A stretch of 64,000 nucleotides of DNA from the sequence record MF547663.1, one strand, 5' to 3'. Below the pieces are notes generated by a model. It did not search any database and was not told where the DNA came from. It saw only the letters and a program-made list of their open reading frames with translations. The DNA is from Clostridioides phage LIBA2945. A program made the translations under genes and the position numbers. This document shows positions 13,705 through 61,357 of the stretch, in pieces (the stretch's first letter is position 1; every line of letters starts with the position of its first letter).

Positions 13705-14550
13705 TTAAAATGGTAAATCTGATTCTTCAATATTTATGTTATTTTTTTGTGCATCTTTTTCTTTCATGGCATTTTCTTTTTCTTCCATTTTATCTATCAT
13801 GGCTACTATATTATCCTTATAGAATGGATTAGGCTTCCCATCTTCACCAAAATCATTTTCTTTTGATATCTTATTTCCTGAACCTCCAGTTATTCTAAGA
13901 TATTTTATTATTTTATCTTTTTTCCCTGTACCAAATCCACCAGTTCCTTCTATTATCTCAGTTACTATATCTCCTTCTAATTGTGGTACATCTCCCACTT
14001 TATATAGCTTTTCAAATTCTTTTATTACTTCTGTATTATCAATTACAAGTCTAACTCTAAATCCATTATCATTGTATTTATTCATTATTCCTATTACTTC
14101 TAATCCCTCTTCTATTTTTATTATTTCCTCCAAGTATACATATGCTCTCCATAATATACCTGCCTTTATAGGTAGTTTTGCATCTTTTTGTCTGTTACAA
14201 AATTTACCTTGTATTCTAAATCCTTCATGTTTTTCTCCATCACTATAATATGTATTGTCATCTAATTGACAGGTGCATCTAACTATTTCTCCTCTACCCT
14301 CTTCTGCTCTAGTTACAATATCATTCACAACTGTTTCTAATCCCTGTGATATCTTATTAACTCCTCCAGCAGATGTGTATATGCTTCCATAATAATCAAC
14401 TATTTCATTCTTATCTTGTGATATAGCAACATTAAGTTTAAACTTTATTGCTTCTTGTGGAGTTCCTTCTTTTACTCTTTCTGCTGCTAATATATCTAAC
14501 ACTTCCCCACTAACAAAAACTTCATTGTAATTTACATTTTTTTTCGCCAT
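13705..14550 (-). CDS. hypothetical protein
   Basis: 281-aa ORF preceded by the recurrent upstream motif and an RBS. Confidence 0.35.
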   Translation of the reverse strand: MAKKNVNYNEVFVSGEVLDILAAERVKEGTPQEAIKFKLNVAISQDKNEIVDYYGSIYTSAGGVNKISQGLETVVNDIVTRAEEGRGEIVRCTCQLDDNTYYSDGEKHEGFRIQGKFCNRQKDAKLPIKAGILWRAYVYLEEIIKIEEGLEVIGIMNKYNDNGFRVRLVIDNTEVIKEFEKLYKVGDVPQLEGDIVTEIIEGTGGFGTGKKDKIIKYLRITGGSGNKISKENDFGEDGKPNPFYKDNIVAMIDKMEEKENAMKEKDAQKNNINIEESDLPF

Positions 14551-14862
14551 AAATATTCTCCTCTTTTATTTTGTATTTTATTCAGTTGTAATCATTCTTA
14601 ATTTTTCTATATACTTATAATAACATGTTCTATTTATTATTTCAATACTTATTTTTAATTTTATTTATTTTAACTAAAAAATCCTCCCCAATACAATAAA
14701 CCAAAAATTACTAGCTTTGAAATTGTAGATACTCCAAAACTTATTTTCATTTCTTTTACCTTTCCATTATTAGCTAAAGACACTCCTAATTGCATAACGT
14801 ATATTATTATTACTAAAATTTGTGGTATTCCTAATTTCATTTAACCTCTCCTTTTAATATGA

Positions 14863-15528
14863 TTACATCATTAATTCTTTATATTTTGGTAATGTTTTAA
14901 AGAAATCACATAAAATCCTCCATTCTTCCATTTTATGATTTTCTCTTTGATTTATCATAGATTTTATTTGTAGATAATTTAATGTAACTCTTGCAGTTAA
15001 CATTAATCCTGATGGGCAATTTGATATTATAATTTTCCAAAGAGTTTCCTTTGTGGCTCTAATATTTTCTCCATTTCTAAGAGTGACTTCATCAGATGCG
15101 GTTAATTTTAATTCCTGAAAATTATTATAATCGTAAATCAATTCATTCAGGAAGTTTATTGTATTTTTAACAACATACTTATTACACATATCATCAATAT
15201 TAAATTTGGTTAATCTGTGCATTTTACTTTGACTAGATACATAGTCATTATGATGATATCTATCCCACTGTCTCCACATATATTCTGACCATTGCAAATC
15301 CATTTGGACAATAATTCCTTTAGAGAAGCAATCATGGCCTGAACCTTGTTTTGATTTGCCTAATTGACATGCTCGTTGTAAATCTTTTTCTGAAATATTT
15401 ACTTCTCTCATATCTTTAATCTGTTGCTGCATAGGATAACCACTCGAAATTATACTTTCTTTAATTCCATAAACACACACATTTGATACATCAATAATTC
15501 CTGGTATTTTTATTCCATTTACTTTCAA
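14863..15528 (-). CDS. hypothetical protein
   Basis: 221-aa ORF. Confidence 0.35.
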   Translation of the reverse strand: MKVNGIKIPGIIDVSNVCVYGIKESIISSGYPMQQQIKDMREVNISEKDLQRACQLGKSKQGSGHDCFSKGIIVQMDLQWSEYMWRQWDRYHHNDYVSSQSKMHRLTKFNIDDMCNKYVVKNTINFLNELIYDYNNFQELKLTASDEVTLRNGENIRATKETLWKIIISNCPSGLMLTARVTLNYLQIKSMINQRENHKMEEWRILCDFFKTLPKYKELMM

Positions 15529-15539
15529 TTTATCAACTC

Positions 15540-16112
15540 CTAACCTTCCACAATAATATAACCTTCTTTATAATGTCTTCCCATATTGTTCACCCTTTTA
15601 TAATACTTATAATCACTCTCCCCTTTTATTCTTGGCACAAATACATCTATTGCATTAGAATTTCCAAAATATTTATTAGAACCTCTGTCTTTGACTACCT
15701 TTAAATTTCCATCAACTAATATTTTAGTTCCGAATTTAAGATGATTATTGGCCACAAACCCATATTGTAATTTTTCTCCTGTAGCTGTAATAGCTCCATA
15801 TTTACTATTTTCACAGTTTAAAGAAGTATAGTAACTTACTTCCCATGTTACAGGAATTAATTTTTCTATTTTTATTCCTAAGTCCTTTTCTAAATTAATT
15901 CTCTTGATTTCTAATTTATATTCAGAACTATTTTTGTGTTGCTCCCACTCATATTTATACATTAAGTTAATATTTTTAGCTGTATCTGCTACAATATTTT
16001 TATCCATCCTGCTAGTACTCATTTCTTTAGTATTAGCAAATATATGTATGCTACTACCCATTACTAAAACACTTGTTACTAATATATTTCTCCACCTCAT
16101 AAAGACCTCCAA
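15540..16112 (-). CDS. secreted 3D-domain protein (RlpA/YuiC-like, cell-wall associated)
   Basis: N-terminal signal peptide; C-terminal ATGEKLQYGFVANNHLKFGTKILVDG...DRGSN..IDVF typical of 3D domains. Confidence 0.5.
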   Translation of the reverse strand: MEVFMRWRNILVTSVLVMGSSIHIFANTKEMSTSRMDKNIVADTAKNINLMYKYEWEQHKNSSEYKLEIKRINLEKDLGIKIEKLIPVTWEVSYYTSLNCENSKYGAITATGEKLQYGFVANNHLKFGTKILVDGNLKVVKDRGSNKYFGNSNAIDVFVPRIKGESDYKYYKRVNNMGRHYKEGYIIVEG

Positions 16113-38571: not shown

Positions 38572-39540
38572 TTAATTAACATCTCCCACTTTTAATAATT
38601 TATATATTGGATTATTTTCAGTCATTTTTTTTGTATTACTCTCTTTGTCTTGATGCATATAATATTTATACATTGTCTGTATACTTTTATTACCTGTAAA
38701 CTTTCCTATTTCTTCCAATTTTGTTCCTGTTTCAGACATTAATGAAACAAAACTATGTTTAAAACTATGCGGTGTTACATGAGGCAATCCAGCTAACTTC
38801 AATGCTTTTTTTACAAGTCTTTCTATTGACCTTGTTGTTAATCTTTCATTATTTTTAGATAAGAACAAAGCATTTGTGCTATCTTTATTATCTTTTTTAC
38901 CTTCGATTTGGTTTCTAAAGTATAAAAAATCTCTATACATTTTTAATACTTGTTCATTTAAACCTACATTTCTTTTTAATTTTCTTTTCCCTATCACTTC
39001 AAAATCTCCATTCGAGAAATTTATGTCTTTTATATTCATTTTTTCTATTTCATGTATTCTCATACCAGTAAAAATAAGTATGTTTATAATCAAATTATCT
39101 CTGCAAGTATTATAGTTTTTATTATCAACATATAATTTATTCATAGTTTCTAATAATTTAATAATTTCATCTTTAGTTAATATCTTTTTCTCAAATTGAA
39201 CTTTATCTTGTAATTTTTTAACGTAGCTAACGGGATTATCTTTAATTTTACCTTTAGCTCTAAGAAAGCCACAATAAGCTTTAAATGATGCTCTTTTTCT
39301 GTTTATTGTAGCTGCTTTCATTCCTTTTTCTTTTAATAAGATAAGCCATTTTTCTTGTATATCTGTAAAAAGTATTTTATCAAGTTCTTCCATTGTACAA
39401 TTTTCTTTTTTAAATAAATACCTTATGCCTTCTTTTACATCAGCTCTATATGCTTTTATTGTTTTCTCATCTCTATCATTATATAACTTTAAATTTAATA
39501 AAAATTCTTCTAGAGCTTCTATTCCAGTCATATGTATCAC
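38572..39540 (-). CDS. tyrosine site-specific recombinase / phage integrase
   Basis: catalytic-region signatures GMRIHEI, HSFKHSF, terminal YKYYMH tyrosine; 322 aa. Confidence 0.8.
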   Translation of the reverse strand: MIHMTGIEALEEFLLNLKLYNDRDEKTIKAYRADVKEGIRYLFKKENCTMEELDKILFTDIQEKWLILLKEKGMKAATINRKRASFKAYCGFLRAKGKIKDNPVSYVKKLQDKVQFEKKILTKDEIIKLLETMNKLYVDNKNYNTCRDNLIINILIFTGMRIHEIEKMNIKDINFSNGDFEVIGKRKLKRNVGLNEQVLKMYRDFLYFRNQIEGKKDNKDSTNALFLSKNNERLTTRSIERLVKKALKLAGLPHVTPHSFKHSFVSLMSETGTKLEEIGKFTGNKSIQTMYKYYMHQDKESNTKKMTENNPIYKLLKVGDVN

Positions 39541-43078: not shown

Positions 43079-43108
43079 CTATATACATTAATAATAATAC
43101 TCTTTCAT

Positions 43109-44071: not shown

Positions 44072-44148
44072 TCTTTTTATTTTAAAATCTTTCTTAATTC
44101 TATTAAATTTAATCTTATAATTTCATCTTTTTCAGACATTAATCTCTC

Positions 44149-44882: not shown

Positions 44883-44901
44883 TTATAATACCTCCCACTA
44901 T

Positions 44902-45297
44902 TTAAATTAGACCTTTTACAATCTCATTTAAATTATTTATATATGTATCATTTAATTTAGAAATATTTATAATCAATTCATTTAAATTTTCATTTTTAGA
45001 TACAGTTATATTAGCAAAAACTTCTCCTAAAACAATATCACATTCTTGTTCAATAAACTTCCTCCCCTCACCAGTTTCTAACCACACTTGATTAACACTA
45101 AAAACCTCACACATATGAGTAATAAATACTGTTTTAACTTCTACTCTATTATTTTCTATATTACTTATAACATCTCTACTCACACCAAGCTTTTCTCCGA
45201 ATTTTTGTTGTGATAAATTTATATCTTCCCTTATTTCTTTTATTCTTTTATTTATATCTATATCAATCATAATACGCTCCTTAAATTTTAATAGCAT
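44902..45297 (-). CDS. XRE-family HTH protein, paralog 1 of 3
   Basis: LSQQKFGEKLGVSRDVISNIE HTH; overlaps the upstream 481-aa gene by 17 nt. Confidence 0.6.
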   Translation of the reverse strand: MLLKFKERIMIDIDINKRIKEIREDINLSQQKFGEKLGVSRDVISNIENNRVEVKTVFITHMCEVFSVNQVWLETGEGRKFIEQECDIVLGEVFANITVSKNENLNELIINISKLNDTYINNLNEIVKGLI

Positions 45298-46726
45298 TTT
45301 TAATAGCTTCTATTGCTCTATCTACATTTATATTATTTATATATCTAAGTTTGTTATCTTCGTTCAAATTTTCTATAATTTTGTAGTACATAGCATGTCC
45401 TATAAAATTAGTGTTTATAAATACATACTCATAACTATTCAATATGTTTACATTAAAATTAATTGTATCTGCTGATATAAATTCAAAGTTAGTTAATTTT
45501 TCTTTCATTTTTAAAATCCAATTTGGATGTCCACCAAATATTATTGCTTTTATATTTTTTAAATTTATACTTTCATCAATTAAAACTTTCTCTTCTTGCT
45601 CTTGTTGCTGGTTGAACATAAAATTTCTTAATTGAACCAATTCTTCTTTAGATGTAAGTTGTGCTTTGATTTCATTTTCTAATCTAAGTTTATCTTTTTG
45701 CAACAATTCTAGTTCTGATTTTAACTTTTCATTTTCTGCCTCCAATAATGAATTTTCTTTTTTAATACTATCCAATTTAAGGTCTTTTTCTTCTATAGAT
45801 TCTTTTAATTCTTCATCAAAATTATTAAAGAAAAATTGTTTAGCTTTTTTATATTCTCTTGCCAAATATCTTATGTCTATAGCAGGAATTATAAATTTAA
45901 ATAAATCCTCATAATTAATGCTATTTTCATCTTCTATATTTTTTTGTAAATTACAGTAACATAAAATTAATTCTTGTATTTGTTTAGATTTAAATATGTC
46001 TCTTCCTACAATTGAAATTAAACTTAATTCTTCCAGGTCATATATATAATCAAATCCTAAAAGGTTTCTGTCTAAATCTGTTAAAGCATCTAAATTAAAA
46101 GTTCCTATACTCCCATCAATTCCAATTGTATACGAGCTTGGAATATATTCTTTTAAATATGTAGATTTTAATCTTAATTCTATCTTACTAATGAGTTTTT
46201 GTTCATCTTTACTTAGTCTATCTATAGATAAAACTTTTTCATGTTTATAATTTTCATTTCTTAGAATCAAATTTCTAATTACTTTTATATATATTTCATC
46301 TGATTCGTCAACTTCTTTCCCTAAAGCTCCACATAAAGAAATTGCAACTAACATATTACCATTTAATTCATCCTCTGAAAAACTTTCAATTTTATTTTTT
46401 AACATAAGTTTTCTTAAAAAGGTACTTGCTTTAAATGTTTGGATAGAAATAATATAATTGTAAGCAATTGTATAACCAACCTTAAATATTTTTGTTATTT
46501 TCTTTTCATCTCTTTCTAATAGAATACCTAAAGATTTTTTAAAATAATATTCTTGAATTATACTTCCTTCACTTGCTATCCTTGAATTATAAAAAATATT
46601 ATCTTTGGCCAAACTTGAATATTTTAATTTATTTTCATTATAATATTTATCTATGAGTTTATAGCATTTTTTATTTATCGACAAAGACTCAGCTAAAAAT
46701 GGTACTATATTTAATTCTTCTTTCAT
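45281..46726 (-). CDS. hypothetical protein with central coiled coil and C-terminal GGHPNW...FI(S/G)H domain (DUF2325-like flavour)
   Basis: 481 aa; first gene of an apparent four-gene operon with the three XRE paralogs. Confidence 0.4.
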   Translation of the reverse strand: MKEELNIVPFLAESLSINKKCYKLIDKYYNENKLKYSSLAKDNIFYNSRIASEGSIIQEYYFKKSLGILLERDEKKITKIFKVGYTIAYNYIISIQTFKASTFLRKLMLKNKIESFSEDELNGNMLVAISLCGALGKEVDESDEIYIKVIRNLILRNENYKHEKVLSIDRLSKDEQKLISKIELRLKSTYLKEYIPSSYTIGIDGSIGTFNLDALTDLDRNLLGFDYIYDLEELSLISIVGRDIFKSKQIQELILCYCNLQKNIEDENSINYEDLFKFIIPAIDIRYLAREYKKAKQFFFNNFDEELKESIEEKDLKLDSIKKENSLLEAENEKLKSELELLQKDKLRLENEIKAQLTSKEELVQLRNFMFNQQQEQEEKVLIDESINLKNIKAIIFGGHPNWILKMKEKLTNFEFISADTINFNVNILNSYEYVFINTNFIGHAMYYKIIENLNEDNKLRYINNINVDRAIEAIKNAIKI

Positions 46727-50263: not shown

Positions 50264-50484
50264 GTTATTACCTCCTTATTTATTAGCTTGTTCCAATAAT
50301 TCTAATTGATTGCTGTTTCCATATTTTGAAATAATACTTTCTGTAGTACTCCAATAGCTACTATCTAAATCCTTTTTAAACAATGATTTTATCTTAATTA
50401 TTAATTTTTTCATGATTTATTCCCCTTTCAATTTTTTTATTGGAAGTGGCGTTTTTAAAGAACGCCCTAAAACTTTTTATTTAG

Positions 50485-50742
50485 TTATTTGATGATAGTA
50501 TTAGTAGAATTTAAATCTTTTCTATACTTATCATAGTCAAAATATCTTTCAAGTACTTCTTTAGCTAAATATTTAATATTTTTTGATTCTCCAATGTAAA
50601 GTTTAGCAAATTCAATAGTATCCATATTGTTATAGTATTCTATCTCATCTCCATCTATATAGTCATCAATTATCCTGCTTTTGTAAGGTTCTAAATCTCT
50701 TGCAAAAGCTTCTAAGTTAAAATAATGGTAAAGATTTTTCAT
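50485..50742 (-). CDS. hypothetical protein
   Basis: ORF. Confidence 0.3.
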   Translation of the reverse strand: MKNLYHYFNLEAFARDLEPYKSRIIDDYIDGDEIEYYNNMDTIEFAKLYIGESKNIKYLAKEVLERYFDYDKYRKDLNSTNTIIK

Positions 50743-50871
50743 TTTTATAGTCCTTCTTTTTTTATTTGTTCTGTCCGAATGATTTATTAAAAATTTTTAT
50801 TTGTTTTGATATTTTTATTATAATGCATTCTGTCCGAATGAGTCAAGTGTTTTTTTGAGTAGATTTTGCAT

Positions 50872-51060
50872 CTACTCAGTTATTTTTTCTATTATTATTT
50901 TTTCACCATCAAAAGTTAATGTAACTTCCCTATCTAATTTAGTTATATCCATTTGTTTAACCCAATTAGTAGGAATTGTTATTCTATTTGTGACTGAGCC
51001 TTTACTTGCAGTTCCTCCACTTGTAGTAAATAATACTTTTGCTTTTCTCTGCTCATACAT
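50872..51060 (-). CDS. AbrB/MazE/SpoVT-like swapped-hairpin DNA-binding protein
   Basis: TNRITIPTNWVKQMDI...DGEKIIIEK pattern, 62 aa. Confidence 0.5.
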   Translation of the reverse strand: MYEQRKAKVLFTTSGGTASKGSVTNRITIPTNWVKQMDITKLDREVTLTFDGEKIIIEKITE

Positions 51061-51115
51061 TCGTTATACCTCCAATGATATTATTGTTTAATAATACCAT
51101 ACTAAGAGCTTGTAG

Positions 51116-51147
51116 AAAAGACACTCAATAATTCAAGTGTCTTTTTA
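51116..51147 (-). terminator. bidirectional intrinsic terminator AGACAC-loop-GTGTCT with A/T runs
   Basis: seen directly downstream of 51155..51487. Confidence 0.5.
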
Positions 51148-51154
51148 TGTATTA

Positions 51155-51487
51155 CTATTTAATTGATTTTAACTTTGCTATTTCATTCCAATTTTTAGAT
51201 GTAGCCATTTCTACAAAGTTCATGTCATTTTTTAAAGTGTCTATTTTTTCTCCAACTTCTGTTATGCCTTCCATGTTTCTAGCAACTTGATTATAAGTTA
51301 AGTCTAGTTTCTTTTTAATTTCTTCTTGCCCTTCTTTTAAATCACTAAGTTGGTTTTCAATCCCATCAAAACGACCATCCATACTATCTAGTCTAGTATT
51401 AATCCATTTTATTTCTCCTTGTATATCATTAATACTAGTATCCATTTTTTGTAATAATTCTAATATTTTTTCATCCATGCCGTTCAC
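51155..51487 (-). CDS. hypothetical coiled-coil protein (paralog A)
   Basis: N-terminus MDEKILELLQKMD identical to 52809..53186. Confidence 0.35.
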   Translation of the reverse strand: MNGMDEKILELLQKMDTSINDIQGEIKWINTRLDSMDGRFDGIENQLSDLKEGQEEIKKKLDLTYNQVARNMEGITEVGEKIDTLKNDMNFVEMATSKNWNEIAKLKSIK

Positions 51488-52051
51488 ACTCCTATTTTAT
51501 TATTATATCATAATTTAAGTGTTGTATTCTAACACTTACTAAAATAATCTAATAAATAGTTTAAATTATACTAGTAAATATTAGATAGTTTATAACCATG
51601 TAGGTGTCAAGCAGTACAAACTATAATTTTAATGCTCAATCTTTAGTACTTTTTATAACGCAGTACCTCACAACTGCTATGTCATATTAAATTGTATTGA
51701 GTGCCATTATAGAAGCAACTAAGTTGATACCTCAATTTTTTGTAGGCTTTAATTGGAAACCTTTATTAATTTTATTTACTTAATTACTTAATGTTGGGAA
51801 CACCTCACCAACTGGTATGACTAATTCATTTTTGTAGTTAAAAAATGAAGAAAAAACTATGTGTAATATTTGTGTTGTGTGCCTTTCACCATTCACACCA
51901 TTAAAAGGTCAACTTAAAGGTAGTAATTTTTTAATAGTAGTTTAATATTTTTTAATAGAACCCTTTAAGATATTAGCTAGAGTTTTAAGAAGGTTCTTTG
52001 CCTGTTACTTCATTTGAGAGGTGGCTTTGTGTTTTCTTGTTCTCCCTTGCT

Positions 52052-52175
52052 ATGATTTAATTATATATCCAAACGGATATATTGTCAATATTTATTTTTA
52101 TAATTTAATAAAAAATATATCTAAACGGATGTTAATATATTTAGATATACGACCGATTGGATATATAACTGATTG
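52052..52175. promoter_or_regulatory. candidate operator cluster: inverted repeat ATATCCAAACGGATAT plus two further AAACGGAT / TTGGATATATA half-site copies
   Basis: seen directly 50-170 bp upstream of the XRE gene at 52225. Confidence 0.4.
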
Positions 52176-52224
52176 TTCTTAATAAATATATATGATATTA
52201 TAATAAATATAAAGAGGTGATAAA

Positions 52225-52542
52225 ATGATTAGTGATAGATTAAGAGAACTAAGAAAAGAAAAAGGCTACACAATTAAAGAGTTAGCACAAATTATAAATG
52301 TTTCAGATATTTCAATCAGTAGATATGAAAACAACAAAAGGGATGCAGATATAAAAACATTGAAAGAGTTAGCAAAATTATATGATGTATCATTAGACTA
52401 TATAACTTGTCTTACAGATAATAGAGAAAATATACAACTTGAAGAAGAAGAAGTCAAACTATTAGATAATTATAGAGAGTTAGACACTAAAAGTAAAACA
52501 ATAGTACAAGAACAAATAAATACATTAAAAAAACTACTGTAA
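52225..52542 (+). CDS. XRE-family HTH transcriptional regulator
   Basis: YTIKELAQIINVSDISISRYE HTH, 105 aa. Confidence 0.7.
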   Translation: MISDRLRELRKEKGYTIKELAQIINVSDISISRYENNKRDADIKTLKELAKLYDVSLDYITCLTDNRENIQLEEEEVKLLDNYRELDTKSKTIVQEQINTLKKLL

Positions 52543-52696
52543 GCTAGACATATATATTCTAGCTTATTTTTATATTCAATTTTAAAAACTAAAGGTATAA
52601 ACATAAGGCAATCATATTACAATACGCTTAAAATGGCATATAATAGCTTGTATAATATATTATATTGTGTAGAATGTATTATAATATAACCATATC

Positions 52697-52763
52697 AAAA
52701 AAATCCGACAACCTGCATACTTATATAGATATATATATCAATATGCGAGTCATCGGAAAAATT
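52697..52763. repeat. 66-bp palindromic site, copy 1 (A7-TCCGACAACCTGCAT-24 bp core-ATGCGAGTCATCGGA-A5TT)
   Basis: paired with 60324..60389; arms swapped relative to copy 2. Confidence 0.6.
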
Positions 52764-52808
52764 AAAAATATAAAAGTACTTAACAAAATGTCAAGTACTT
52801 TTTATGTA

Positions 52809-53186
52809 TTATTGTAATTTTATTTTTATTTCTTCTAATTGTTCCATATTTCTAGCGACTTGGTCGGTTGCTCCATTTAGCTTTCTATTAATCTTAATTA
52901 CTCTAGTTTCTATTGCATTTAACTTAATGTCAACCACATCAAAGTTATCTTTAATAGAAGTCATTTCCTCTGCTGTTGAAATAGATTGATTATATAGTAT
53001 ATCTTGTTTCTTTTCAATACTGTCAAGCCTATTTTCTATACTATCAAATCGCTTGTCCATGTTATCAAGTCTGTTGTTAGTTTCAACCTGTCCAATTTTT
53101 AAATCATTGATGTCCTGTTTCATTTCAGTAATATTACTATCCATTTTCTGTAATAATTCTAGTATCTTTTCATCCATCACGACCAC
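52809..53186 (-). CDS. hypothetical coiled-coil protein (paralog B)
   Basis: N-terminus MDEKILELLQKMD shared with 51155..51487. Confidence 0.35.
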   Translation of the reverse strand: MVVMDEKILELLQKMDSNITEMKQDINDLKIGQVETNNRLDNMDKRFDSIENRLDSIEKKQDILYNQSISTAEEMTSIKDNFDVVDIKLNAIETRVIKINRKLNGATDQVARNMEQLEEIKIKLQ

Positions 53187-53721
53187 GCTCCTTTTATTAT
53201 TATAACATAATAGTTAATGTTATATACAGCTAATTGTCGTATTCTAATCAACTTGTGTCATTATAAGTTTTCATTTGTCACACTTCCTTTTGATTTTATT
53301 TAATTGATGATTTAATAATACATTACTTTCCAATTTTTGTCAATACGTTCTATTATATTTATATATTTTATTTAGTTATTGTCCTTGTAAAAATATTGCT
53401 TATCATATTGATATCACTAGCTTATGAGTACATAATTGTGTGAATTATTTTTTATATCTACTATAGTATGCGAATTTGATTAATGATTAAGAAATGTAGT
53501 GATTATGTGATAGATGCTAATAATGTAATGATAATATTAAGCTAATAATGTAAGAGTTCTATTTCTATAAACTTTTTTATTTAATAATGAACACAAAAAA
53601 AATAATAACTCATGCTATCATCTTTAAAATAACATAAATTATTATTTCTAATAAAAAGTAAGATTTAGTACCTTTTTATTCGTTTTTAACAAAGTAATTT
53701 CTTTTCTTAACATACATTAAT

Positions 53722-53753
53722 AACGTCGTATAATAAGATGATTATACGACGTT
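53722..53753. other. perfect 11-bp inverted repeat AACGTCGTATA / TATACGACGTT with 10-nt loop
   Basis: seen directly in a 1.45-kb noncoding stretch. Confidence 0.5.
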
Positions 53754-53773
53754 GACCTTAAAAATAGAAGAAA

Positions 53774-54007
53774 GGGGGCTATTTTTAGACTTTAGTATCA
53801 AATGATATTCATTATCATTTTGTAGTCCTTTTTCTTCTACATCCCAAATTCCATTCAGCCCTTAAAATAAACATTTATACAAAATTACACCACTAATTCA
53901 AATTTTTAAACATACACTCATGAACAATTTCAAACCGTCTCCGAGTATTATAAAACAGTGTTAATTCAATACTTATTTTTCATTAATCATGATAAAAAAA
54001 TAGCCCC
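53774..54007. repeat. 12-13-bp inverted repeats GGGGGCTATTTTT / AAAAATAGCCCC bracketing about 210 bp of noncoding DNA
   Basis: seen directly. Confidence 0.45.
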
Positions 54008-54448
54008 ATCTATGTTTTGAACCTATGTTATAAGGCTAAAGCATGAACAGGGGGTGTATGTTTTATTTTAATTTATATGAACTATATAAAATATATATTA
54101 TATCCTATAAATCAACTATAATTGTTATAAAATAATTTTAAATAGTGTATGTTTTAAATTTGAACATCTCAAAATCCTATAGACAAAATTTTAATTCTAT
54201 CAAGTTATCATTTTTTACTTAAAATTCAATACAATTCAAACAAAATATACTTCATGCAATTTATTCAAGATTAAAACATATAAATATGCCTATTTTATAG
54301 AAAAATATATAGTAATTTATATAATTTTTCATATCAATTTTCGTAGACACTATACTCCAGAAAATCAATCTAAAATGATAAATTTTATAAAACAATTTTC
54401 AAATTTAAGTAGTGTATGTATGGTTTTTATAAAAATTATTAATATTTA

Positions 54449-54602
54449 ATATGCAATTGCATATAAATTATATTAAAATTTATAATTAAATATAAAACAA
54501 ATTGTAATATAACCTTCTTTACGCTTGTAGTATATTTTGTATTACAATTATAGTTTAATAGTATATATAATTTATATTAAATTTGCATTGTAATTATATA
54601 CC
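54449..54602. promoter_or_regulatory. centromere-like (parC-like) repeat cluster: ATGCAATTGCAT palindrome plus three or more TTGTAAT(T)ATA / ATTACAA half-sites
   Basis: seen directly upstream of the RHH-ParM gene pair. Confidence 0.4.
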
Positions 54603-54650
54603 AATTGAAATATAATTAAACTAAATGAGCTATAAAAGGAGGGGATTTTT

Positions 54651-54884
54651 ATAAAAAAGGATACTTATAATTTACAGATACCTATTCCAATAGAATTAGC
54701 TGATAAATTAAAATCACTAGCTGAAAAGGATGAAAGAAGTTTAAGATTGTATTGTAAAAGAGTACTACAATTACATGCAGATGAAATTTATAATAATAAT
54801 AATGATATTGACGAAGCTAATACTAATAATCAAAATGAAACAGCTAAAAAAAGAAAAGTAGGAGCTTTAAAACCACAAAAATAA
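54651..54884 (+). CDS. ribbon-helix-helix DNA-binding protein, ParR-like partition adaptor
   Basis: IPIPIELADKLKSLAEKDERSLRLYCKRVLQLHADEI is a typical RHH (CopG/ParG-like); no ATG/GTG/TTG start, probable ATA start 8 nt after AAGGAGGGG; immediately upstream of parM-like gene. Confidence 0.45.
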   Translation: MKKDTYNLQIPIPIELADKLKSLAEKDERSLRLYCKRVLQLHADEIYNNNNDIDEANTNNQNETAKKRKVGALKPQK

Positions 54885-54901
54885 TTTAGGGGGATTTACT
54901 T

Positions 54902-55846
54902 ATGAAAAAAGAAAAAGTAAAAGTTGCAGTAGACTTAGGTAATAGTATGCTTAATTCAGCAGCATATATTGAAAAAGAATTAATTTTAAAAAAGTTACCA
55001 AATAAACTTCAATTTGAAAAAACAATATCACCAAAAGCACGTGTTATGAAAAAAGATGGTAAGGTAATCTACCTAGGTGTAGGAGATTTAAATAATAATG
55101 TTCTTAAACATACTAGAAAAAATTTATTAGAACAAGTTTTAGTCATGATTCATGAAATATTTCCTGATGAGGATAATCTTTCTGTGGAATTGATAACCGG
55201 ATTACCACCAACTCAAATGTTTAATGAAAAATATTTGAAATTATTTCAAGATATTTTTATTCAACCTGGAGAAATAAAAATTACTATTGATGGAAAACAA
55301 AAAACTTTTGAAATACTTAATGTTGATGTTAAAGCAGAAGGATATTCAGGATTTATTTCACTTGTAGACAAGATTACTACTAAACAGAATATTCTAGGAA
55401 TAGATGTTGGAGGCAGTACTACAGATTTATGTAATTATGAATATGATTATGAGGATGATATGTACTATCCTAATGTAACAGACACTATAGAAAAAGGAAT
55501 CATAGACTTTGAAACAGCAATAGCAAATAAATTTAATAGTAAAAATGGTGCAGATATAAAAATAAGTCAAATAGATGTAATATTAAGAAACGATATTGAT
55601 GTTATAGAGTATGAGGGTTCTAAATACAAATTAGATGATTATATTGATGCCATGTACCCTATTATTGATGATATGATTAATAAAATCACTAATAAATTTG
55701 GTCAGCTAGATGGATATTATGTTGTTGGTATTGGAGGGGGCTATAAAACATTTAATAAATATGCTAATCAATTTATAAGTAAACAACTAGAAGTCGATGA
55801 TGATTCTCGTTTCTATGCAAATGTAATTGGATACCTTGAACAATAA
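54902..55846 (+). CDS. parM: actin-like segregation ATPase (ParM/Alp family)
   Basis: phosphate-1 VAVDLGNSMLN and phosphate-2 GIDVGGSTTD motifs, 314 aa. Confidence 0.65.
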   Translation: MKKEKVKVAVDLGNSMLNSAAYIEKELILKKLPNKLQFEKTISPKARVMKKDGKVIYLGVGDLNNNVLKHTRKNLLEQVLVMIHEIFPDEDNLSVELITGLPPTQMFNEKYLKLFQDIFIQPGEIKITIDGKQKTFEILNVDVKAEGYSGFISLVDKITTKQNILGIDVGGSTTDLCNYEYDYEDDMYYPNVTDTIEKGIIDFETAIANKFNSKNGADIKISQIDVILRNDIDVIEYEGSKYKLDDYIDAMYPIIDDMINKITNKFGQLDGYYVVGIGGGYKTFNKYANQFISKQLEVDDDSRFYANVIGYLEQ

Positions 55847-55944
55847 TACTAAAAATATTTAATGAGAGCCATTTTAAGACAGTTCCATGCCCGTCCATGA
55901 TAATTAATTCATATTCAGAAATAAAATCGTTTAGAATAGATTTT

Positions 55945-55972
55945 AAAGGTCACTAATTTAGTGACCTTTTTA
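55945..55972. terminator. bidirectional terminator AAAGGTCAC-TAATTTA-GTGACCTTT with T-run
   Basis: between convergent parM-like and rep genes. Confidence 0.55.
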
Positions 55973-56599
55973 TTATTTCTTTTGTTGTTTTTTTATTATC
56001 TCTCTCATCTTACTCGCACCTGATGCAATTTCTTTTTCAGACATAGAATATATTTCTAATTCAGTAAATCCATTTTCTTTTAGTACTTGTATATCTTTTT
56101 CTTTTTGTGTTATAATATTATTATCATTAATTGAATTTAAAGTTTTTCGTTTCGAGTCATCTGTTGAAGCTGCTACTTCATCAGGTGACTTTTTACTTTT
56201 CTTCTTTTCCCTTTTCGTCTTCATGTAACTCTCTGCATTTTCTCGAATTTTTGACTTAGACATTGCAATTTCATACACGTTATTTCCATATAAATTATTT
56301 TCATTTTGGATTCTATAAACCTTAATAAATCCATTTTCCTTTAAGACCTCAACATATTTTATAAAAGCATTTTTACTTATGTTCAACTCTCCATAGATTG
56401 TTTCCATTCTTGGATGACAGTATTTTTTATTACCTGCGAAACTAGCCAGATAAGCGTAAATAGCTTTTGAGTAAATAGGTATGTCCTTATTTCTCATAAG
56501 AAATTTTGGAGATATACCATAACCATCCGAAAGAATACTATCTTCCTCTAGTCTAACATCTAAAACCTCACCATCTTTAATTTTTATTATATTATTCAT
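55973..56599 (-). CDS. RepA_N-type (Firmicute plasmid) replication initiator-like protein
   Basis: N-terminal winged-helix block GISPKFLMRNKDIPIYSKAIYAYLASFAG...METIYGELNISKNAFIKYVEVLKENGFI; adjacent iterons. Confidence 0.45.
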   Translation of the reverse strand: MNNIIKIKDGEVLDVRLEEDSILSDGYGISPKFLMRNKDIPIYSKAIYAYLASFAGNKKYCHPRMETIYGELNISKNAFIKYVEVLKENGFIKVYRIQNENNLYGNNVYEIAMSKSKIRENAESYMKTKREKKKSKKSPDEVAASTDDSKRKTLNSINDNNIITQKEKDIQVLKENGFTELEIYSMSEKEIASGASKMREIIKKQQKK

Positions 56600-56608
56600 A
56601 AGTTACTC

Positions 56609-56848
56609 CTAGTACAATTTGTATTCATATACAAATATTCCATTTTCAAATTTTTTATTAACTTCAAGATAGCCCTTGTCTTTCAATTCGTTCCATGCCA
56701 TTCTAAACGAATATGCTCCCAAATCTAAATAGTCCATCAAAAATTGTTTAGAGAAGTAAGGTTCGTTTTTAAATGCTGAGATAGTTCCATAAAGACCTTT
56801 AGCTTTTAAGCTAATACTTTTACTTTTGAATATATCTTCTTTTACCAT
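56609..56848 (-). CDS. small winged-helix protein related to the Rep N-terminus
   Basis: KAKGLYGTISAF...FLMDYLDLGAYSFRMAWNELKDKGYL. Confidence 0.3.
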   Translation of the reverse strand: MVKEDIFKSKSISLKAKGLYGTISAFKNEPYFSKQFLMDYLDLGAYSFRMAWNELKDKGYLEVNKKFENGIFVYEYKLY

Positions 56849-56988
56849 AGTCTAATTTTTACACCCTCCTATTTTTTTTATTTTAAACTTATTATAATTT
56901 ATAATTCCCATTTTTTCAAGGTAATTTTTCCCTTTACATAAACAAATAAATACAAAAACAAATATATTAAAAACTGTTTATATTAATA

Positions 56989-57128
56989 TACCATCTCATG
57001 GTACGCCCATAGCATGGGATATCGAAAAATTCGATGTACCACGAGATGGTACATCGAAAGAATCGCTATATTTCAACGTTTTTTCGATTTTTGCCTCGAT
57101 ATACCACGAGATGGTACATCGAAAAATT
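56989..57128. promoter_or_regulatory. iteron cluster / candidate replication origin
   Basis: TACCACGAGATGGTACATCGAAA twice (57037, 57102), an inverted near-copy TACCATCTCATGGTA (56989), palindromes CCCATAGCATGGG and ATCGAAAAATTCGAT. Confidence 0.5.
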
Positions 57129-57447
57129 AAAGTATCTGAAACAATTTAAAAATTATATAGTTATGCACAGATAAAAATACAAATTGTTAATAAAATTGCA
57201 ACTTATCAACATGTTATCAACAACTTACTAACAGCTTATCAACAGGGAATAAAACTGAATAAAATACTAAATTGACAAAAATAATATAAAATGTTAATAT
57301 ATAATTATAGATAAAATATTAAATTAATAGGAGGAAATTTATATATGAAAAACATTTAACAACTAAATAAAATTAAAAAACAAAATTGAAACGGAGGTTA
57401 AAATATGAAGAAAAGTAAAGAATACAAAAAGATGAAAGGACTAGAAG

Positions 57448-57642
57448 ATGGTAAACAAAAATATAAAAATATTAAGAGAGGATTATAGTGAATTTTTAGA
57501 TGACTGGAATATAATTGGAAAAAGAAATATATATAAATGTCCAGAATGTCAATATCATGGGAATAAATGTGACAGACATAATAATAGTGAGGGGGTAAGC
57601 TATGGCTTTGATAAGTGGCAATTTCAAAGGGAAAATAGATAA
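57448..57642 (+). CDS. small zinc-finger ORF (uncertain)
   Basis: CPECQYHGNKCDRH; weak RBS; overlaps next gene. Confidence 0.2.
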   Translation: MVNKNIKILREDYSEFLDDWNIIGKRNIYKCPECQYHGNKCDRHNNSEGVSYGFDKWQFQRENR

Positions 57643-58792
57643 TAAAAGTATTTGGGACTACATGCATAAATTAGACTATAAATTAGAAACATTAGAAGAA
57701 AGAAAGAAATTTATTGATGAATTATTAAATCTAAAAAATATAGATGAGCTTAAATTCAGTGATGATGAATTTTGGCAAGAAGTATTCGATAAAGGAATAT
57801 GCAAAGCTAATTTAAATACAACAGATGTATTATGGTCAGAAACCAATATAAGTCATTTCTTAGAAAAAGTAGGTACATATCTATTAGCAAAGGATGATAA
57901 AAAAGAAGAAAAAGAAAATATAAAAGTATATGACTCTTATTCAGAATTTAAAAGGAGTATGCAACAAGAGAAAAAAATGCGAAAACATGCAGAGGTGGTT
58001 GAATTTGATGTTGAAGACAATGAAAATTCAAATGGAAAACCAGTAAGAATACTAAAAAATCAGAAAAATTTTAAACTATCTCCAGATATAAAAATAAGTA
58101 AAAAAGATAGATTAAAATATTCTGAAATAGAAGATTATTATAAATATAAACAGTATTTATTAAACTTAAAAAATGATAAAGAGCATAGAGAAAATTTATC
58201 AAAAAGTATAAATTCAAATAATGTAAAATTAAGAATTAAAAAAGGCGGGGATATTTACAGGTTTGCAATCAAACAACTACCACTAGTTCAGGATGATATG
58301 TTACAAGTCAAACTCCAAAAAGATAAAAACATAATTTGGAAAGCTCCATTAAAAGATAGTTGTAATGACATCAATATAGACTGTGATTTAATAGATATGT
58401 TTGACCCAGTACATGTAAAAGCTCTATTACAAATTCCTTATAATGATAACTTAATAGATGAGATAGCATTAAGTAAACAAGACATATTAAATAAAATAGA
58501 GTTAACTGATACACAAAAAATTATATTATCATTATGGGAAAAAGGTGTTACACAAAATGAAATAGCCAAGCAATTAGGTATAGCTCAAAAAAATGTAAAT
58601 TTACATATTGATAGAATAGTAAATAAGTTTATAGATAAGTATACTGAAATATATGAAGACGAATATTATTATGTTTATTTAGTAAAAGGAAAGTATAAAA
58701 AATGTAGCAAATGTGGAGAAATTAAACTAATACAAAGGTTTGATAAAAATGGGAAAAAGGGCTATCGTTCAAACTGTAAAAACTGCAACTAA
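57602..58792 (+). CDS. putative transcription regulator with sigma-70 region-4/LuxR-like HTH and C-terminal zinc ribbon
   Basis: LTDTQKIILSLWEKGVTQNEIAKQLGIAQKNVNLHIDRIVNKF; CSKCGE...CKNC; RBS GAGGGGG. Confidence 0.4.
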   Translation: MALISGNFKGKIDNKSIWDYMHKLDYKLETLEERKKFIDELLNLKNIDELKFSDDEFWQEVFDKGICKANLNTTDVLWSETNISHFLEKVGTYLLAKDDKKEEKENIKVYDSYSEFKRSMQQEKKMRKHAEVVEFDVEDNENSNGKPVRILKNQKNFKLSPDIKISKKDRLKYSEIEDYYKYKQYLLNLKNDKEHRENLSKSINSNNVKLRIKKGGDIYRFAIKQLPLVQDDMLQVKLQKDKNIIWKAPLKDSCNDINIDCDLIDMFDPVHVKALLQIPYNDNLIDEIALSKQDILNKIELTDTQKIILSLWEKGVTQNEIAKQLGIAQKNVNLHIDRIVNKFIDKYTEIYEDEYYYVYLVKGKYKKCSKCGEIKLIQRFDKNGKKGYRSNCKNCN

Positions 58793-58876
58793 TGGGTGGG
58801 GAAAATAGGGTATAAAATCGGCTGGAAAAGACATTAATATATGTAGGGGTAATTAATACTACTACAAATAAATAAA

Positions 58877-59209
58877 ATGTATAAAGTCGAGGAGAGATTG
58901 AAAATGAGAAAAAATGAATATGTAAAATTATTTCAAGAGAAACTAAAGGAAGAAGGATTAGAACTAAAACAAAAAGAAGTAGATGTAGTATTAGATGCAT
59001 TTAAAGAATTAGTTGTAGATATATTTAAATCAGGTGAAGACGCTACTATAGGTGGATTTCTAAAAATAGGAAGAAAAGAAATAGAAGCATGTGAAAAAAC
59101 ACATACTTTACCAGGAAAAGAAGGAGAAAAATATATTATACCAGCCAGTACTAAACCAACAGTTAAATTTATAAATTCTTTTGTAAAAGAACATATGATA
59201 TTAAAATAG
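58877..59209 (+). CDS. hup: HU/IHF-family DNA-binding protein
   Basis: about 110 aa; arm region GGFLKIGRKE...IPASTKPTVKF matches the HU beta-arm pattern. Confidence 0.6.
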   Translation: MYKVEERLKMRKNEYVKLFQEKLKEEGLELKQKEVDVVLDAFKELVVDIFKSGEDATIGGFLKIGRKEIEACEKTHTLPGKEGEKYIIPASTKPTVKFINSFVKEHMILK

Positions 59210-59278
59210 TTAACAACTAAATAAAATATAAATATAAAATGGATAAGTCTTAATTGGACTTATCATTGTGGAGATATA

Positions 59279-59312
59279 GGAGATTGTTAATGGTTCGATT
59301 CCATTAATCTCC
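59279..59312 (+). other. tRNA 3'-half-like minihelix (acceptor arm GGAGATT/AATCTCC, T arm AATGG-TTCGATT-CCATT), no CCA
   Basis: T-loop matches TTCRANY consensus; possible tRNA-gene remnant or att core. Confidence 0.35.
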
Positions 59313-59652
59313 ATCTTTTAAGCAAAAAGAAAGCACATGTCGTGAGATAGCAGTAAGTCTTTCTTTTTCTTTTTATTAAGAAAGAGAGGATGATATCATA
59401 GAAGAAATAAATATAAAAGAAGTAAGCAAGATAATATGTGTTAGTGAAAATACGTTATATAAAGATTTTAAAAAATATGCTTCTAAATTAGAAGAAAATA
59501 ATATTTTTTATGATGGAAAAGGTAAAAAAAGAAAGTTTTATAGAAAAGAAATAAAAGACAGTGAATATATAGCATATGATATTTTTAAACAAATTGCTTA
59601 TAATGTCTGGAAATTTGATAGTAAAGTAGATATAAATAAATTATTATATTAC

Positions 59653-60324
59653 ATGGCTGTGATTCTAACTATGCAAGATATAAAGGGGAATATGAGTATA
59701 TTATCATCAAATCAAATTGCAAATATAGTAGGAGTGGACAAAAATACCATATCAAGATATAAAAATAAATTAATTAAAAATAATATCTTTATGCCCTCTA
59801 ATCTATCTAAAACAGTTACATATGCTACATTTAAAGATATAGATGTCTTAAGTATTAAAAGTGAATTAATACCACATAAAGAAAATTGTAAAAATAGAGT
59901 AAATCAAGATAAAGAATTAGATAATTTTAGATATCAGGTTAGACTGGTAGCAGATAAAAATATAAACTTTAAAAGAAAAGAAAATATCATAGTTGATAAT
60001 AGTTTGTATGAAGATTATCTAAATGCATGTAGAATTATAGCAAATACACCATTTTTAAAAGATAAAGAAAATTATAATAGAGTAGTAAATATGGTGAAAC
60101 ATAATAAACATGAATTAAATGTAACTCAGAAAGATAAATACATAGCATTCAATGAATTTGCAAGAGAAATAGGATTAGTTAAGTTATATCAAGTACATAA
60201 GACAGAATATAGAACTAATGTTATGAAAAATAAAGAGTTATTAGATATAATTGTTAAAGCTTTTAGGTATAGAAATAATAATAGTAATATTAATAATAAA
60301 CTAGTAAAATACAACTCATATTAA
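59653..60324 (+). CDS. HTH-containing hypothetical protein
   Basis: NQIANIVGVDKNTISRYKNKL. Confidence 0.35.
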   Translation: MAVILTMQDIKGNMSILSSNQIANIVGVDKNTISRYKNKLIKNNIFMPSNLSKTVTYATFKDIDVLSIKSELIPHKENCKNRVNQDKELDNFRYQVRLVADKNINFKRKENIIVDNSLYEDYLNACRIIANTPFLKDKENYNRVVNMVKHNKHELNVTQKDKYIAFNEFAREIGLVKLYQVHKTEYRTNVMKNKELLDIIVKAFRYRNNNSNINNKLVKYNSY

Positions 60325-60389
60325 TTTTTCCGATAACTCGCATACTTATATAAATATATATATCAATATGCAGGTCATCGGATTTTTTT
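60324..60389. repeat. 66-bp palindromic site, copy 2 (ATTTT-TCCGATAACTCGCAT-24 bp core-ATGCAGGTCATCGGA-T7)
   Basis: paired with 52697..52763; arms swapped. Confidence 0.6.
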
Positions 60390-60416
60390 GAAAGAAATAT
60401 TTTAAAGGTGTATGTT

Positions 60417-60971
60417 ATGAATTTACAATACTTTGAAAAGGATAAATATTATGTTTATAAACATTACATTATAGATCATGATGGTAAAGAGAATGTCTTT
60501 TATATTGGAAAAGGAATTGGAGACAGAATTTATAATCAAATCAGAAATGAAAAATGGTATGATATAGTAAAAAACAATAACTATAATTATAATGTTGATA
60601 TTATTAAGTATTTTGAAAATGAAAAAGATGCATTAGATTATGAGGTAAAATTGCAATTATATTATTGGAGCAATGGACAATGTAAAGGTTGTGCTGATAT
60701 AGATGCAGCAATAGGCAAAGAAAAAATAAAGAAACAAAATAAATTATTAGAAGAAGGACTGGTTATACAAGATGACTATTTAAATAAATGGTTATTTAAA
60801 TATGAATTGGAAAATATCATCAATACATATGAGTTAAAAGATAATAAAAGAAGAGTAATGTCTGCTAATAAATTCATTAATTATTTAAAAGAATGTAATT
60901 ATAGAATTGAAAAAATTAGAAAAAGAACAAAAAAGAAACAAGAAACATTATATAAAATATGTAATAAGTAG
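60417..60971 (+). CDS. GIY-YIG nuclease (homing-endonuclease-like)
   Basis: YYVYKHY...VFYIGKGIGDR...E spacing fits GIY-(10-11)-YIG; ATG 60417 after AAAGGTG. Confidence 0.5.
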   Translation: MNLQYFEKDKYYVYKHYIIDHDGKENVFYIGKGIGDRIYNQIRNEKWYDIVKNNNYNYNVDIIKYFENEKDALDYEVKLQLYYWSNGQCKGCADIDAAIGKEKIKKQNKLLEEGLVIQDDYLNKWLFKYELENIINTYELKDNKRRVMSANKFINYLKECNYRIEKIRKRTKKKQETLYKICNK

Positions 60972-61185
60972 GATTTTATAATTATAATTTTAATCACAAG
61001 GCGTTAGCCGAAGTGATAGCAAGGAACGTAAGTGACGCGGTAGCTATAACTAACGCCTTCACTTCGTTCAGTTGTTATCCTCAGCTAAAGCTTCGGATAT
61101 ATTATTCATGATTGTAATATATGGGTTAAAGTTCTAGTAATTAATAATAGATATCTGTTAATACAGAGATGATGATATTACTAAA

Positions 61186-61262
61186 AGGGATATAGCTCAG
61201 GTGGCTAGAGCGTTCGGTTCATACCCGAAAGGTCATAGGTTCGACTCCTATTATTCCTACCA
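61186..61262 (+). tRNA. tRNA-Met (anticodon CAT; elongator-like, could be tRNA-Ile2 if lysidinylated)
   Basis: cloverleaf folded by hand: acceptor AGGGATA/TATTCCT (one G-U), D arm GCTC/GAGC, anticodon stem TTCGG/CCGAA with loop TTCATAC, T arm ATAGG-TTCGACT-CCTAT, encoded CCA. Confidence 0.8.
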
Positions 61263-61267
61263 AATAT

Positions 61268-61357
61268 GGAGAGGTACTCAAGTGGTAAAGAGGATAGTTT
61301 GCTAAACTATTAGGTCAATTAATTGATACGAGGGTTCAAATCCCTTCCTCTCTTCCA
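61268..61357 (+). tRNA. tRNA-Ser (anticodon GCT), class II with long variable arm
   Basis: acceptor GGAGAGG/CCTCTCT, anticodon loop TTGCTAA, palindromic variable arm TCAATTAATTGA, T arm GAGGG-TTCAAAT-CCCTT, encoded CCA. Confidence 0.75.

Follow-up and report, generated by a model that had tools for sequence, protein, structure and literature searches.

Description of the locus

The locus lies in a stretch of 64,000 nucleotides from Clostridioides phage LIBA2945 (record MF547663.1), referred to below as the window, and consists of a plasmid-maintenance block of about 7.6 kb with a ParM-type partition gene, initiator-like and DNA-binding proteins and repeats, bracketed by two 66-bp elements, copy 1 on the left and copy 2 on the right. 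The coordinates of all features are detailed in Table 1. Judged by its DNA identity, the window comes from a C. difficile "big plasmidial phage" of the phiCD5763/LIBA6276 type, with a size of ~132-139 kb. Its part from 50 to 64 kb was 96.6% identical to Clostridioides phage LIBA6276 over 98% of the length, 97.4% identical to the C. difficile plasmid pZ1322PCD0028-2, and partly similar to phiCDIF1296T and phiCD211.

An earlier sequence-only reading of this DNA had described the two elements at 52697-52763 and 60324-60389, with a core in direct orientation and exchanged arms, and this description was confirmed throughout. The 24-bp cores (52719-52742 and 60344-60367) are in direct orientation and share 23 of their 24 positions. 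Compared with the reverse-complemented right arm of copy 2, the left arm of copy 1 had 2 mismatches in 22 positions; for the left arm of copy 2 and the reverse-complemented right arm of copy 1 there was 1 in 22, while within each copy 3-4 of the 14 stem positions are mismatched. The 32-nt pattern GCAT-core-ATGC had exactly two matches in the window, both on the plus strand, and none in 100 dinucleotide-preserving shuffles of it. In the repeat search the pair came up twice, once in direct orientation (54 nt, 89%) and once as an inverted repeat (84 nt, 82%).

On the strand with the T7 run, both copies read as one element, AATTTTT-CCGAT.ACTCGCAT-(core)-ATGCAGGT..TCGG-ATTTTTTT. Copy 1 reads AATTTTT CCGATGACTCGCAT (ATTGATATATATATCTATATAAGT) ATGCAGGTTGTCGG ATTTTTTT on the minus strand, and copy 2 reads AATTTTT CCGATAACTCGCAT (ACTTATATAAATATATATATCAAT) ATGCAGGTCATCGG ATTTTTTT on the plus strand; arms and flanks are the same, and the 24-bp centre alone is reversed, so that in this orientation the core of copy 2 is flipped with respect to that of copy 1. 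Since the elements are inverted copies of one asymmetric element, the "swapped half-sites" are an inverted repeat with a flipped 24-bp loop, and "direct core, swapped arms" is the same statement in other words. The CCTG/CTCG signature is the asymmetry of this single element (a U.G and a C.A stem imperfection) and not the remnant of two parental palindromes. If an inverted repeat and a single flip are assumed, 3-4 differences remain over the 66 nt. A direct duplication was rejected as the origin of the hairpin pair, as it needs four substitutions turning each arm into the reverse complement of the other, together with unrelated flanks. The two descriptions are mathematically equal; the pattern alone is therefore no evidence of integration, and comparative data are needed.

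Table 1. Features of the plasmid-maintenance block, the bracketing elements and the recombinase genes in the window.
Feature	Position	Strand	Characteristics
Copy 1	52697..52763	-	AATTTTT, 14-bp arm, 24-bp AT core, 14-bp arm, U7 (52703-52697)
Core K of copy 1, ACTTATATAGATATATATATCAAT	52719..52742	+	AT-only apical part of the hairpin
Copy 2	60324..60389	+	Same arms, then U7 (60383-60389)
Core K of copy 2, ACTTATATAAATATATATATCAAT	60344..60367	+	Exact reverse complement at this place in LIBA6276
Ordinary terminator-like hairpin between gene stop and copy 1	52772..52802	-	Terminator scan
XhlA-like coiled-coil protein (phrog_5553), outermost left gene	52809..53186	-	Paralog 51155..51487
Open reading frame (ORF) of 45 amino acids (aa)	54747..54884		Matches phrog_35171 alone, a family with no assigned function
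ParM-like actin-type partition ATPase	54902..55846	+	Pfam ALP_N, MreB-like_C; phrog_691 partition protein 1.5e-51
Two winged helix-turn-helix (wHTH) ORFs (208 aa, 79 aa)	55973..56848	-	HTH_36; phrog_186, phrog_270, phrog_7882
Palindromes and tandem repeats	56983..57253	.	Repeat search
396-aa sigma-factor-like / LuxR(GerE) helix-turn-helix (HTH) protein	57602..58792	+	Domain and PHROG searches; not RepA_N
HU-family DNA-binding protein	58877..59209	+	Domain and PHROG searches
223-aa protein with weak HTH_36/CII-like N-terminus, outermost right gene	59653..60324	+	Absent with copy 2 from three relatives
tRNA-Met(CAT)	61186-61262		Outside the interval, to the right
tRNA-Ser(GCT)	61268-61357		Outside the interval, to the right
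XerC-like tyrosine recombinase	38572..39540	-	Pfam Phage_integrase and SAM-like domain
297-aa ORF beside the XerC-like gene	37567-38460	-	No Pfam family; phrog_5830 "integrase" 6e-25

Terminator features of the elements

In both copies, U7 directly follows ...UCGGA, and the opposite strand has AAAAAUU, so that each copy is unidirectional. Each consists of a stem and U7, read on the same strand as the gene whose end lies immediately before it: copy 1 starts ~46 nt beyond the stop of ORF 52809..53186 (minus strand), and copy 2 begins on the final base of the ORF 59653..60324 stop codon (plus strand). Copy 2 occupies the 92-bp gap after the latter ORF and ends 27 nt before the ATG at 60417. Both elements point outward from the partition/replication block, as in an alternative already mentioned in the sequence-only reading, in which copy 2 was a plus-strand and copy 1 a minus-strand terminator. 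This intergenic position, 3' of a gene on the same strand, is syntenic in ~30 loci of C. difficile phage-plasmids of the phiCD5763/LIBA6276 type, from which the region was gathered for comparison.

The predicted folds contain 14 arm pairs and ~8-10 additional AT pairs, a stem of at least 14 bp, and the two C-G pairs at the stem base are invariant across alleles, as expected of a stable G-C-based stem-loop. On the U-tract strand, the predicted fold energy was -23.9 kcal/mol for copy 1 (z -4.8) and -17.7 kcal/mol for copy 2; on the opposite strand, it was -16.7 kcal/mol (copy 1, plus) and -25.2 kcal/mol (copy 2, minus). Among the relatives, values of -31.1 kcal/mol for copy 2 of LIBA6276 and -24.8 kcal/mol for copy 1 of ES-S-0107-01 were obtained on the U-tract strand, and the z-scores of these four U-tract-strand folds ranged from -3.6 to -7.1. 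The ordinary hairpin at 52772..52802 and copy 1 form tandem terminator-like elements after ORF 52809..53186. At the place equivalent to copy 1, phiCD211-type relatives have an unrelated A-tract/stem/T-tract hairpin.

Taken together with the comparative data below, the elements are probably an inverted pair of one long-stem intrinsic terminator, placed at the outer ends of the block with an insulating role and with the loop flipped in one of them. Each would be built of a 14-bp GC-containing lower stem, a ~10-bp AT-only upper stem formed from the 24-bp core, and U7 immediately 3'. From this anatomy and gene context we infer termination in both directions: copy 1 would stop minus-strand transcripts exiting the block leftwards and copy 2 plus-strand transcripts exiting it rightwards, and the pair would thereby insulate this block from the phage genes on either side.

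Variation of arms and core among relatives

Ten distinct arm alleles were aligned in U-tract orientation (seven in an earlier alignment). Over the 14-bp arms, 92.9% of the cells pair, 5 of the 14 pairs show two-sided compensatory changes, 13 further pair types occur, and the covariation score was 0.317. These values were reached by none of 500 shuffles, and shifted registers paired only 28-38%. Among the arm alleles were CCGAYRAC/GTYRTCGG, CCCCTYAC/GTRAGGGG and CCGACAGG/CCTATCGG, and further examples were CCGAUGAC/GUCAUCGG, CCCCUCAC/GUGAGGGG, CCCCUUAC/GUAAGGGG and CCGACAGG/CCUAUCGG. Changes affect 4-7 of the 28 arm positions and are compensated, and three outer-arm allele classes were distinguished. 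The conserved property is the pairing inside each element. As the arms covary, they are not sequence-specific binding sites.

The complementarity of arms across copies, which the sequence-only reading had taken as the trace of recombination, does not behave in this way. In IMG/VR 2740892351 the cross-copy mismatches were 0 and 1, but in LIBA6276 and OX246691 they rose to 4 of 14 on both pairs, whereas within-copy pairing was kept (0-4 mismatches).

The core varies in orientation and in length. The core of copy 2 in LIBA6276 is the reverse complement of that of copy 2 in the window at 24 of 24 positions. A single high-scoring segment pair between both genomes (50265-61130, 10.9 kb, 96.7% identity) spans both elements, so the 7.6 kb between them are unchanged in LIBA6276. 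As in minute inversions, the stem arms delimit the flipped segment, its sequence is exactly reverse-complemented, and the DNA on both sides is collinear. The arms also differ in LIBA6276, where CCCC-type outer arms are joined to CTCG/CAGG inner arms, so that conversion from another allele is possible for this flip. Additionally, copy 2 of OX246691 and the reverse-complemented copy 1 of 2740892351 have identical flanks and arms and differ solely in core orientation and one core base. The core measures 22, 24 or 26 bp through (AT)n changes; six loci have 26 bp, and a single one, GCA_046750105, has 22 bp. The hairpin loop of one copy may have been inverted between its own stem arms, by intramolecular recombination or template switching; alternatively, the copy may have been converted from its partner.

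Search for integration and excision forms

The sequence-only reading had proposed attL/attR-like hybrid sites, left by recombination within the common core of two perfect palindromes, and a 7.6-kb interval that would be an integrated, possibly excisable mini-replicon. This is very unlikely. The direct cores and the close cross-copy match of the arms in the window and in 2740892351 fit it, but a plain inverted repeat with a flipped loop yields the identical arm pattern, and the match breaks in LIBA6276 and OX246691. The direct-core state is shared with OX246691, which is ~86% identical, so this state is old. The GCAT-core-ATGC pattern allows a lox-like 13-6-13 reading in which 11 of 13 arm positions match, and an XerC-like recombinase with an integrase-like neighbour occurs in genomes with the module; nevertheless, the arms are not conserved as in a recombination site (five covarying pairs, three outer-arm classes), core length and orientation are not fixed, and the putative 6-bp spacer differs between the window copies (GATATA and AATATA).

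The genomes GCA_024609125 and GCA_030494075 have a perfect CCGATAACCTGCAT/ATGCAGGTTATCGG palindrome (CCTG/CAGG) at copy 1, with the arms that an empty site was predicted to have, and ERZ27272610 has a near-perfect one, yet all these loci retain the module and an unchanged copy 2. Copy 1 alone was found in IMG/VR 2541047343, ES-S-0107-01 and GCA_046750105, where the partition/replication genes remain, a further point against this reading. In these three genomes, a gene for a 399-aa ResIII/DEAD helicase takes the place of the region corresponding to 59420-60765 of the window, which comprises the 223-aa ORF, copy 2 and the 5' portion of the following ORF. Copy 1 was present in every examined genome of this module type. 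In the relative L073, the intact helicase gene lies at 14511..15710. The 184/187-aa ORF of the window at 60408..60971 keeps only the C-terminal tail of this helicase, with ~71% nucleotide identity; its N-terminus differs and has a GIY-YIG-looking motif (YYVYKH...VFYIGKG) with no match in Pfam.

No empty site was found among 10 distinct contexts of the gene to the right of copy 2, all of which contain the full module, and no small plasmid carrying the module was found in PLSDB. In IMG/VR and the GTDB representative genomes, every true match to the core was at the copy 1 or copy 2 location of ~132-139-kb phage-plasmids, and neither substrate nor product forms were seen. In the scan of GTDB representatives, only the two copies in the C. 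difficile plasmid OX246691.1 were relevant, as the other two matches had no palindromic arms. A core scan of metagenomes, made with a poorly chosen pattern (N at two positions), returned 50 matches, all 50 of them (TA)n noise, and is uninformative on empty sites. Relatives thus carry the same hybrid arms, with no empty-site or circular form in the data searched, and terminator-like elements, a combination that the sequence-only reading had itself named as contrary to integration.

A target of a telomere resolvase (protelomerase), suggested by the TATATA-centred palindrome, was also considered and rejected; the relatives are circular, there are two sites and the symmetry is imperfect. In Paraclostridium sordellii plasmids, the homolog of the XhlA-like gene is followed by a different, ordinary terminator, with no core.

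A chimeric element and the core as a boundary

A copy-1-like element lies at 15129-15194 of pCD1602_4, beside an alternative module of the phiCD211 type. Its arms are chimeric, the left of the window type and the right of the OX246691 type (CCGATAACCTGCAT / ATGCAAGTGAGGGG); 11 of 14 positions pair, and the predicted fold has -18.6 kcal/mol. The arm types suggest that diverged phage-plasmids have crossed over in the conserved core or next to it.

The 32-bp GCAT-core-ATGC could then be a recombination-prone boundary, serving as a micro-homology patch for crossover, which would be compatible with a terminator function. The arms of pCD1602_4 are those expected for a crossover in or near the core, and the joined outer and inner arms of copy 2 in LIBA6276 and the high mosaicism of the region point in the same direction. 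Still, this is the single clear chimera, a crossover anywhere between diverged alleles gives the same picture with no hotspot, and the major points of module exchange (52663, 59391-59420, 60764 and 61262) do not fall at the elements. A hotspot in the core is accordingly regarded as improbable.

Points against termination and a possible role of the core DNA

Several observations weigh against the long-stem terminator. A simple terminator scan did not report either element, since its rules allow loops of 3-8 nt only and at most 20 pairs. In most genomes, the core of copy 2 is oriented for the weaker hairpin on the U-tract strand (-17.7 versus -25.2 kcal/mol), the C.A and U.G stem imperfection is kept in most copies, and the T5 run 5' of the stem has no explanation. 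The core is near-invariant in lineages whose flanks have diverged by 14-20%, while the arms change freely, which hints at a sequence-specific role of the core, and it occurs only twice per ~135-kb genome, precisely at both ends of the block. The XerC-like recombinase accompanies this module type in 9 of 9 relatives checked. Besides, many of the ~30 loci are close relatives and represent few independent events.

Part of these data would fit a role at the DNA level, as a cruciform or as an AT core bound by HU, the initiator or, at copy 1, a dimer-resolving recombinase, with the elements as replicon borders and termination as a secondary effect. This role is unlikely. A conserved core between variable arms, two copies per genome at the block borders, which flank a switch of strand and GC skew near 52-54 kb, the constant presence of copy 1 and a best-folding strand of copy 2 that is not the U-tract strand are in its favour; the (AT)n length changes and the flip argue against a precisely spaced protein site, in both copies the stem is followed directly by U7 on the strand that codes for the upstream gene, pCD1602_4 tolerates a chimeric and poorly pairing copy, and the search for dif-like and other recombinase sites gave no candidate. 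A DNA-level or recombinase-related role of the core keeps a small probability on account of its stronger conservation compared with the arms, the two copies per genome and the usual weak-fold orientation of copy 2.

In Rfam, only two tRNAs reached the gathering threshold in the window, and at a permissive E-value the elements matched only sub-threshold models of microRNA precursors, that is, generic long hairpins.

Recombinase candidates

The XerC-like gene and its 297-aa neighbour had been named as candidates for the cognate recombinase of the elements. The XerC-like gene is considered first. It was found with this module type in all nine relatives checked (LIBA6276, ES-S-0107-01, pZ1322PCD0028-2 and six IMG/VR contigs) and is kept with the module although the adjoining block 39698-45600 is 99.8% phiCD211-like; the link between gene and module is suggestive. 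In pCD1602_4, on the contrary, the element is present with no XerC-like gene in the syntenic stretch (28 kb examined). The gene was set aside as the partner of the elements, as it is a known group-specific gene (PMC5786514) and the pCD1602_4 element occurs without it.

The neighbouring 297-aa ORF may encode a degenerate or accessory recombinase. Its homolog in phiCD211 has 308 aa, is 32% identical, has no XerC-like neighbour and is followed by an unannotated 522-aa ORF. A Firmicutes dif-like site and lox-like inverted repeats were searched for near the recombinase genes, and nothing convincing was found.

It is highly improbable that the near-invariant 24-32-bp core (GCATACTTATATA-GATATA-TATATCAATATGC, lox-like 13-6-13) is the target of the XerC-like protein and the 297-aa ORF product as a pair, with copy 1 serving dimer resolution, the second site excision or inversion, and the hairpin doubling as a terminator. 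If so, direct cores would permit conditional excision of a 7.6-kb self-replicating ParM mini-plasmid, and inverted cores, as in LIBA6276, would permit inversion during replication and an amplification of copy number like that by FLP/FRT of the yeast 2-micron plasmid.

Genes and repeats of the block

The partition and initiator block of the interval is real and has already been described for big plasmidial phages. Its interpretation as the module for life as a plasmid-prophage was supported by ParM, an initiator-like wHTH protein, iteron-like repeats and HU, and was likewise already known (PMC5786514). From the inventory of maintenance functions in the sequence-only reading, ParM, HU, an initiator-like wHTH protein and the iteron-like repeats stood, and the RepA_N-like initiator did not, as the 396-aa ORF is sigma/LuxR(GerE)-like. 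A minihelix resembling the 3' end of a tRNA was also placed in the interval in error; the only tRNA-like features (61186-61262 and 61268-61357) lie outside it.

The product of 54902..55846 is an actin-like ATPase, as in ParMRC systems, and its homologs are annotated as ParM in relatives; the sequence index searched lists this ParM in about 1,000 blocks. For a ParR adaptor and a parC centromere, the searches gave only the 45-aa ORF 54747..54884 with its phrog_35171 match, and short, weak repeats in the 1.5-kb non-coding stretch at 53.2-54.7 kb. The 208-aa HTH_36/DnaD-like ORF, resembling helicase loaders or replication initiators, is the best initiator candidate. Between the divergent initiator-like and sigma-like genes, 56983-57253 is candidate operator, origin or iteron DNA, with two near-identical palindromes of 27-29 bp, TCGATGTACCACGAGATGGTACATCGA, at 57031 and 57096, and an 11-bp unit, CAACTTATCAA, repeated 4.2 times in tandem at 57199-57244.

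The duplication of ORF 52809..53186, inside the interval, by 51155..51487, outside it, was verified (78% over 89 nt; both XhlA-like coiled-coil). One to three tandem or dispersed paralogs of this gene (phrog_5553) were observed in four relatives. Between 50 and 53 kb, small HTH, MazE/AbrB and ArdA genes form a mosaic that is different in nearly every genome. More than 20 C. difficile plasmids, 12-135 kb in size, contain sequences that match 63-72 bp of the tRNA-Met gene with 93-97% identity. The phiCD211-type phages have the tRNA-Ser and lack the tRNA-Met.

Mosaic structure of the window

The phiCD211-type relatives lose homology with the window at 52663 and regain it at 61262, at the tRNA-Ser. 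The swapped block is larger than the bracketed interval, so the borders of the exchange are not the cores, which is a further argument against attL/attR-like sites.

The window is 99.8% identical to phiCD211 in 39698-45600, and the blocks flanking this segment (35100-39702, with the XerC-like gene, and 52663-61262, with ParM) are those of the other phage group. This difference in identity indicates a recent mosaic exchange. Within the phiCD211-like segment, a TnpB/IS605 OrfB-type gene with a Cas12f1-like TNB domain is located at 40557-41720 (minus strand), and internal repeats at ~42846-43074 correspond to the array of clustered regularly interspaced short palindromic repeats (CRISPR) annotated in phiCD211.

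Comparison with known systems

The gene content of the window matches that of the big plasmidial phages of C. difficile (PMC5786514), and its DNA shares 96-98% identity with LIBA6276 and pZ1322PCD0028-2. Ramírez-Vargas et al. divided these ~130-kb extrachromosomal siphoviruses into phiCD5763-like and phiCD2955/phiCD211-like groups, each with its own ParM, DNA-binding protein and regulators, found a tyrosine recombinase in the phiCD5763-like group, and reported a LuxR-type factor, parM and a calcineurin-like phosphatase at the end of every one of these genomes (PMC5786514). The words "palindrome" and "terminator" have no occurrence in that paper. With respect to these phages, the bracketing hairpin pair is a new detail and not a new system. 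Known views of replication and segregation in them are unchanged, and the pair is an ordinary kind of feature and a modest evolutionary curiosity.

With attL/attR and lox/FRT/dif sites, the elements share imperfect palindromes with an asymmetric centre, direct cores that bracket a segment, and a tyrosine recombinase ~13 kb away. Unlike in such sites, arm sequence is not conserved, core length and orientation vary, no recombination products were found in the data searched, and the element occurs in a genome without that recombinase.

The long-stem intrinsic terminators are closer, for example TerR of the B. subtilis plasmid pLS20 (PMC10325885), in which a GC-containing stem likewise precedes a U tract in the intergenic region after a stop codon. 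In TerR, a stem of at least 14 bp confers resistance to processive antitermination, and the length of the stem matters, not its sequence (PMC10325885). This independence of sequence matches the freely covarying arms of the present elements, whose stem also exceeds the usual 7-9 bp. In contrast to TerR, the upper stem is here pure A/T with internal mismatches, and the terminator is predicted from sequence; TerR ends a conjugation operon, whereas the elements are an inverted pair around a plasmid-maintenance block. By analogy, resistance to antitermination would be fitting for an element at such a boundary in a large phage. As a proposed pair of long-stem terminators, the elements offer a testable model of a maintenance block that is transcriptionally insulated from the neighbouring lytic and packaging genes.

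The flipped core has its parallel in plastids. Kelchner and Wendel reportedly described hairpin-associated minute inversions in plastid non-coding DNA in 1996. Such inversions recur in plastid spacers, for example trnH-psbA (PMC2903610). Both cases have a short segment (24 bp here) between hairpin-forming inverted repeats of a 3' untranslated region or terminator, with both orientations found in collinear relatives. The present case differs in being in a bacterial phage-plasmid, with one flip polymorphism (LIBA6276 versus the rest) and a standing difference between copy 1 and copy 2, for which gene conversion is also possible. If the terminator reading is right, the elements would be a clear-cut bacterial case in which hairpin-loop inversion, (AT)n slippage and compensatory evolution of the stem have occurred within a terminator, comparable to the minute inversions of plastid spacers.

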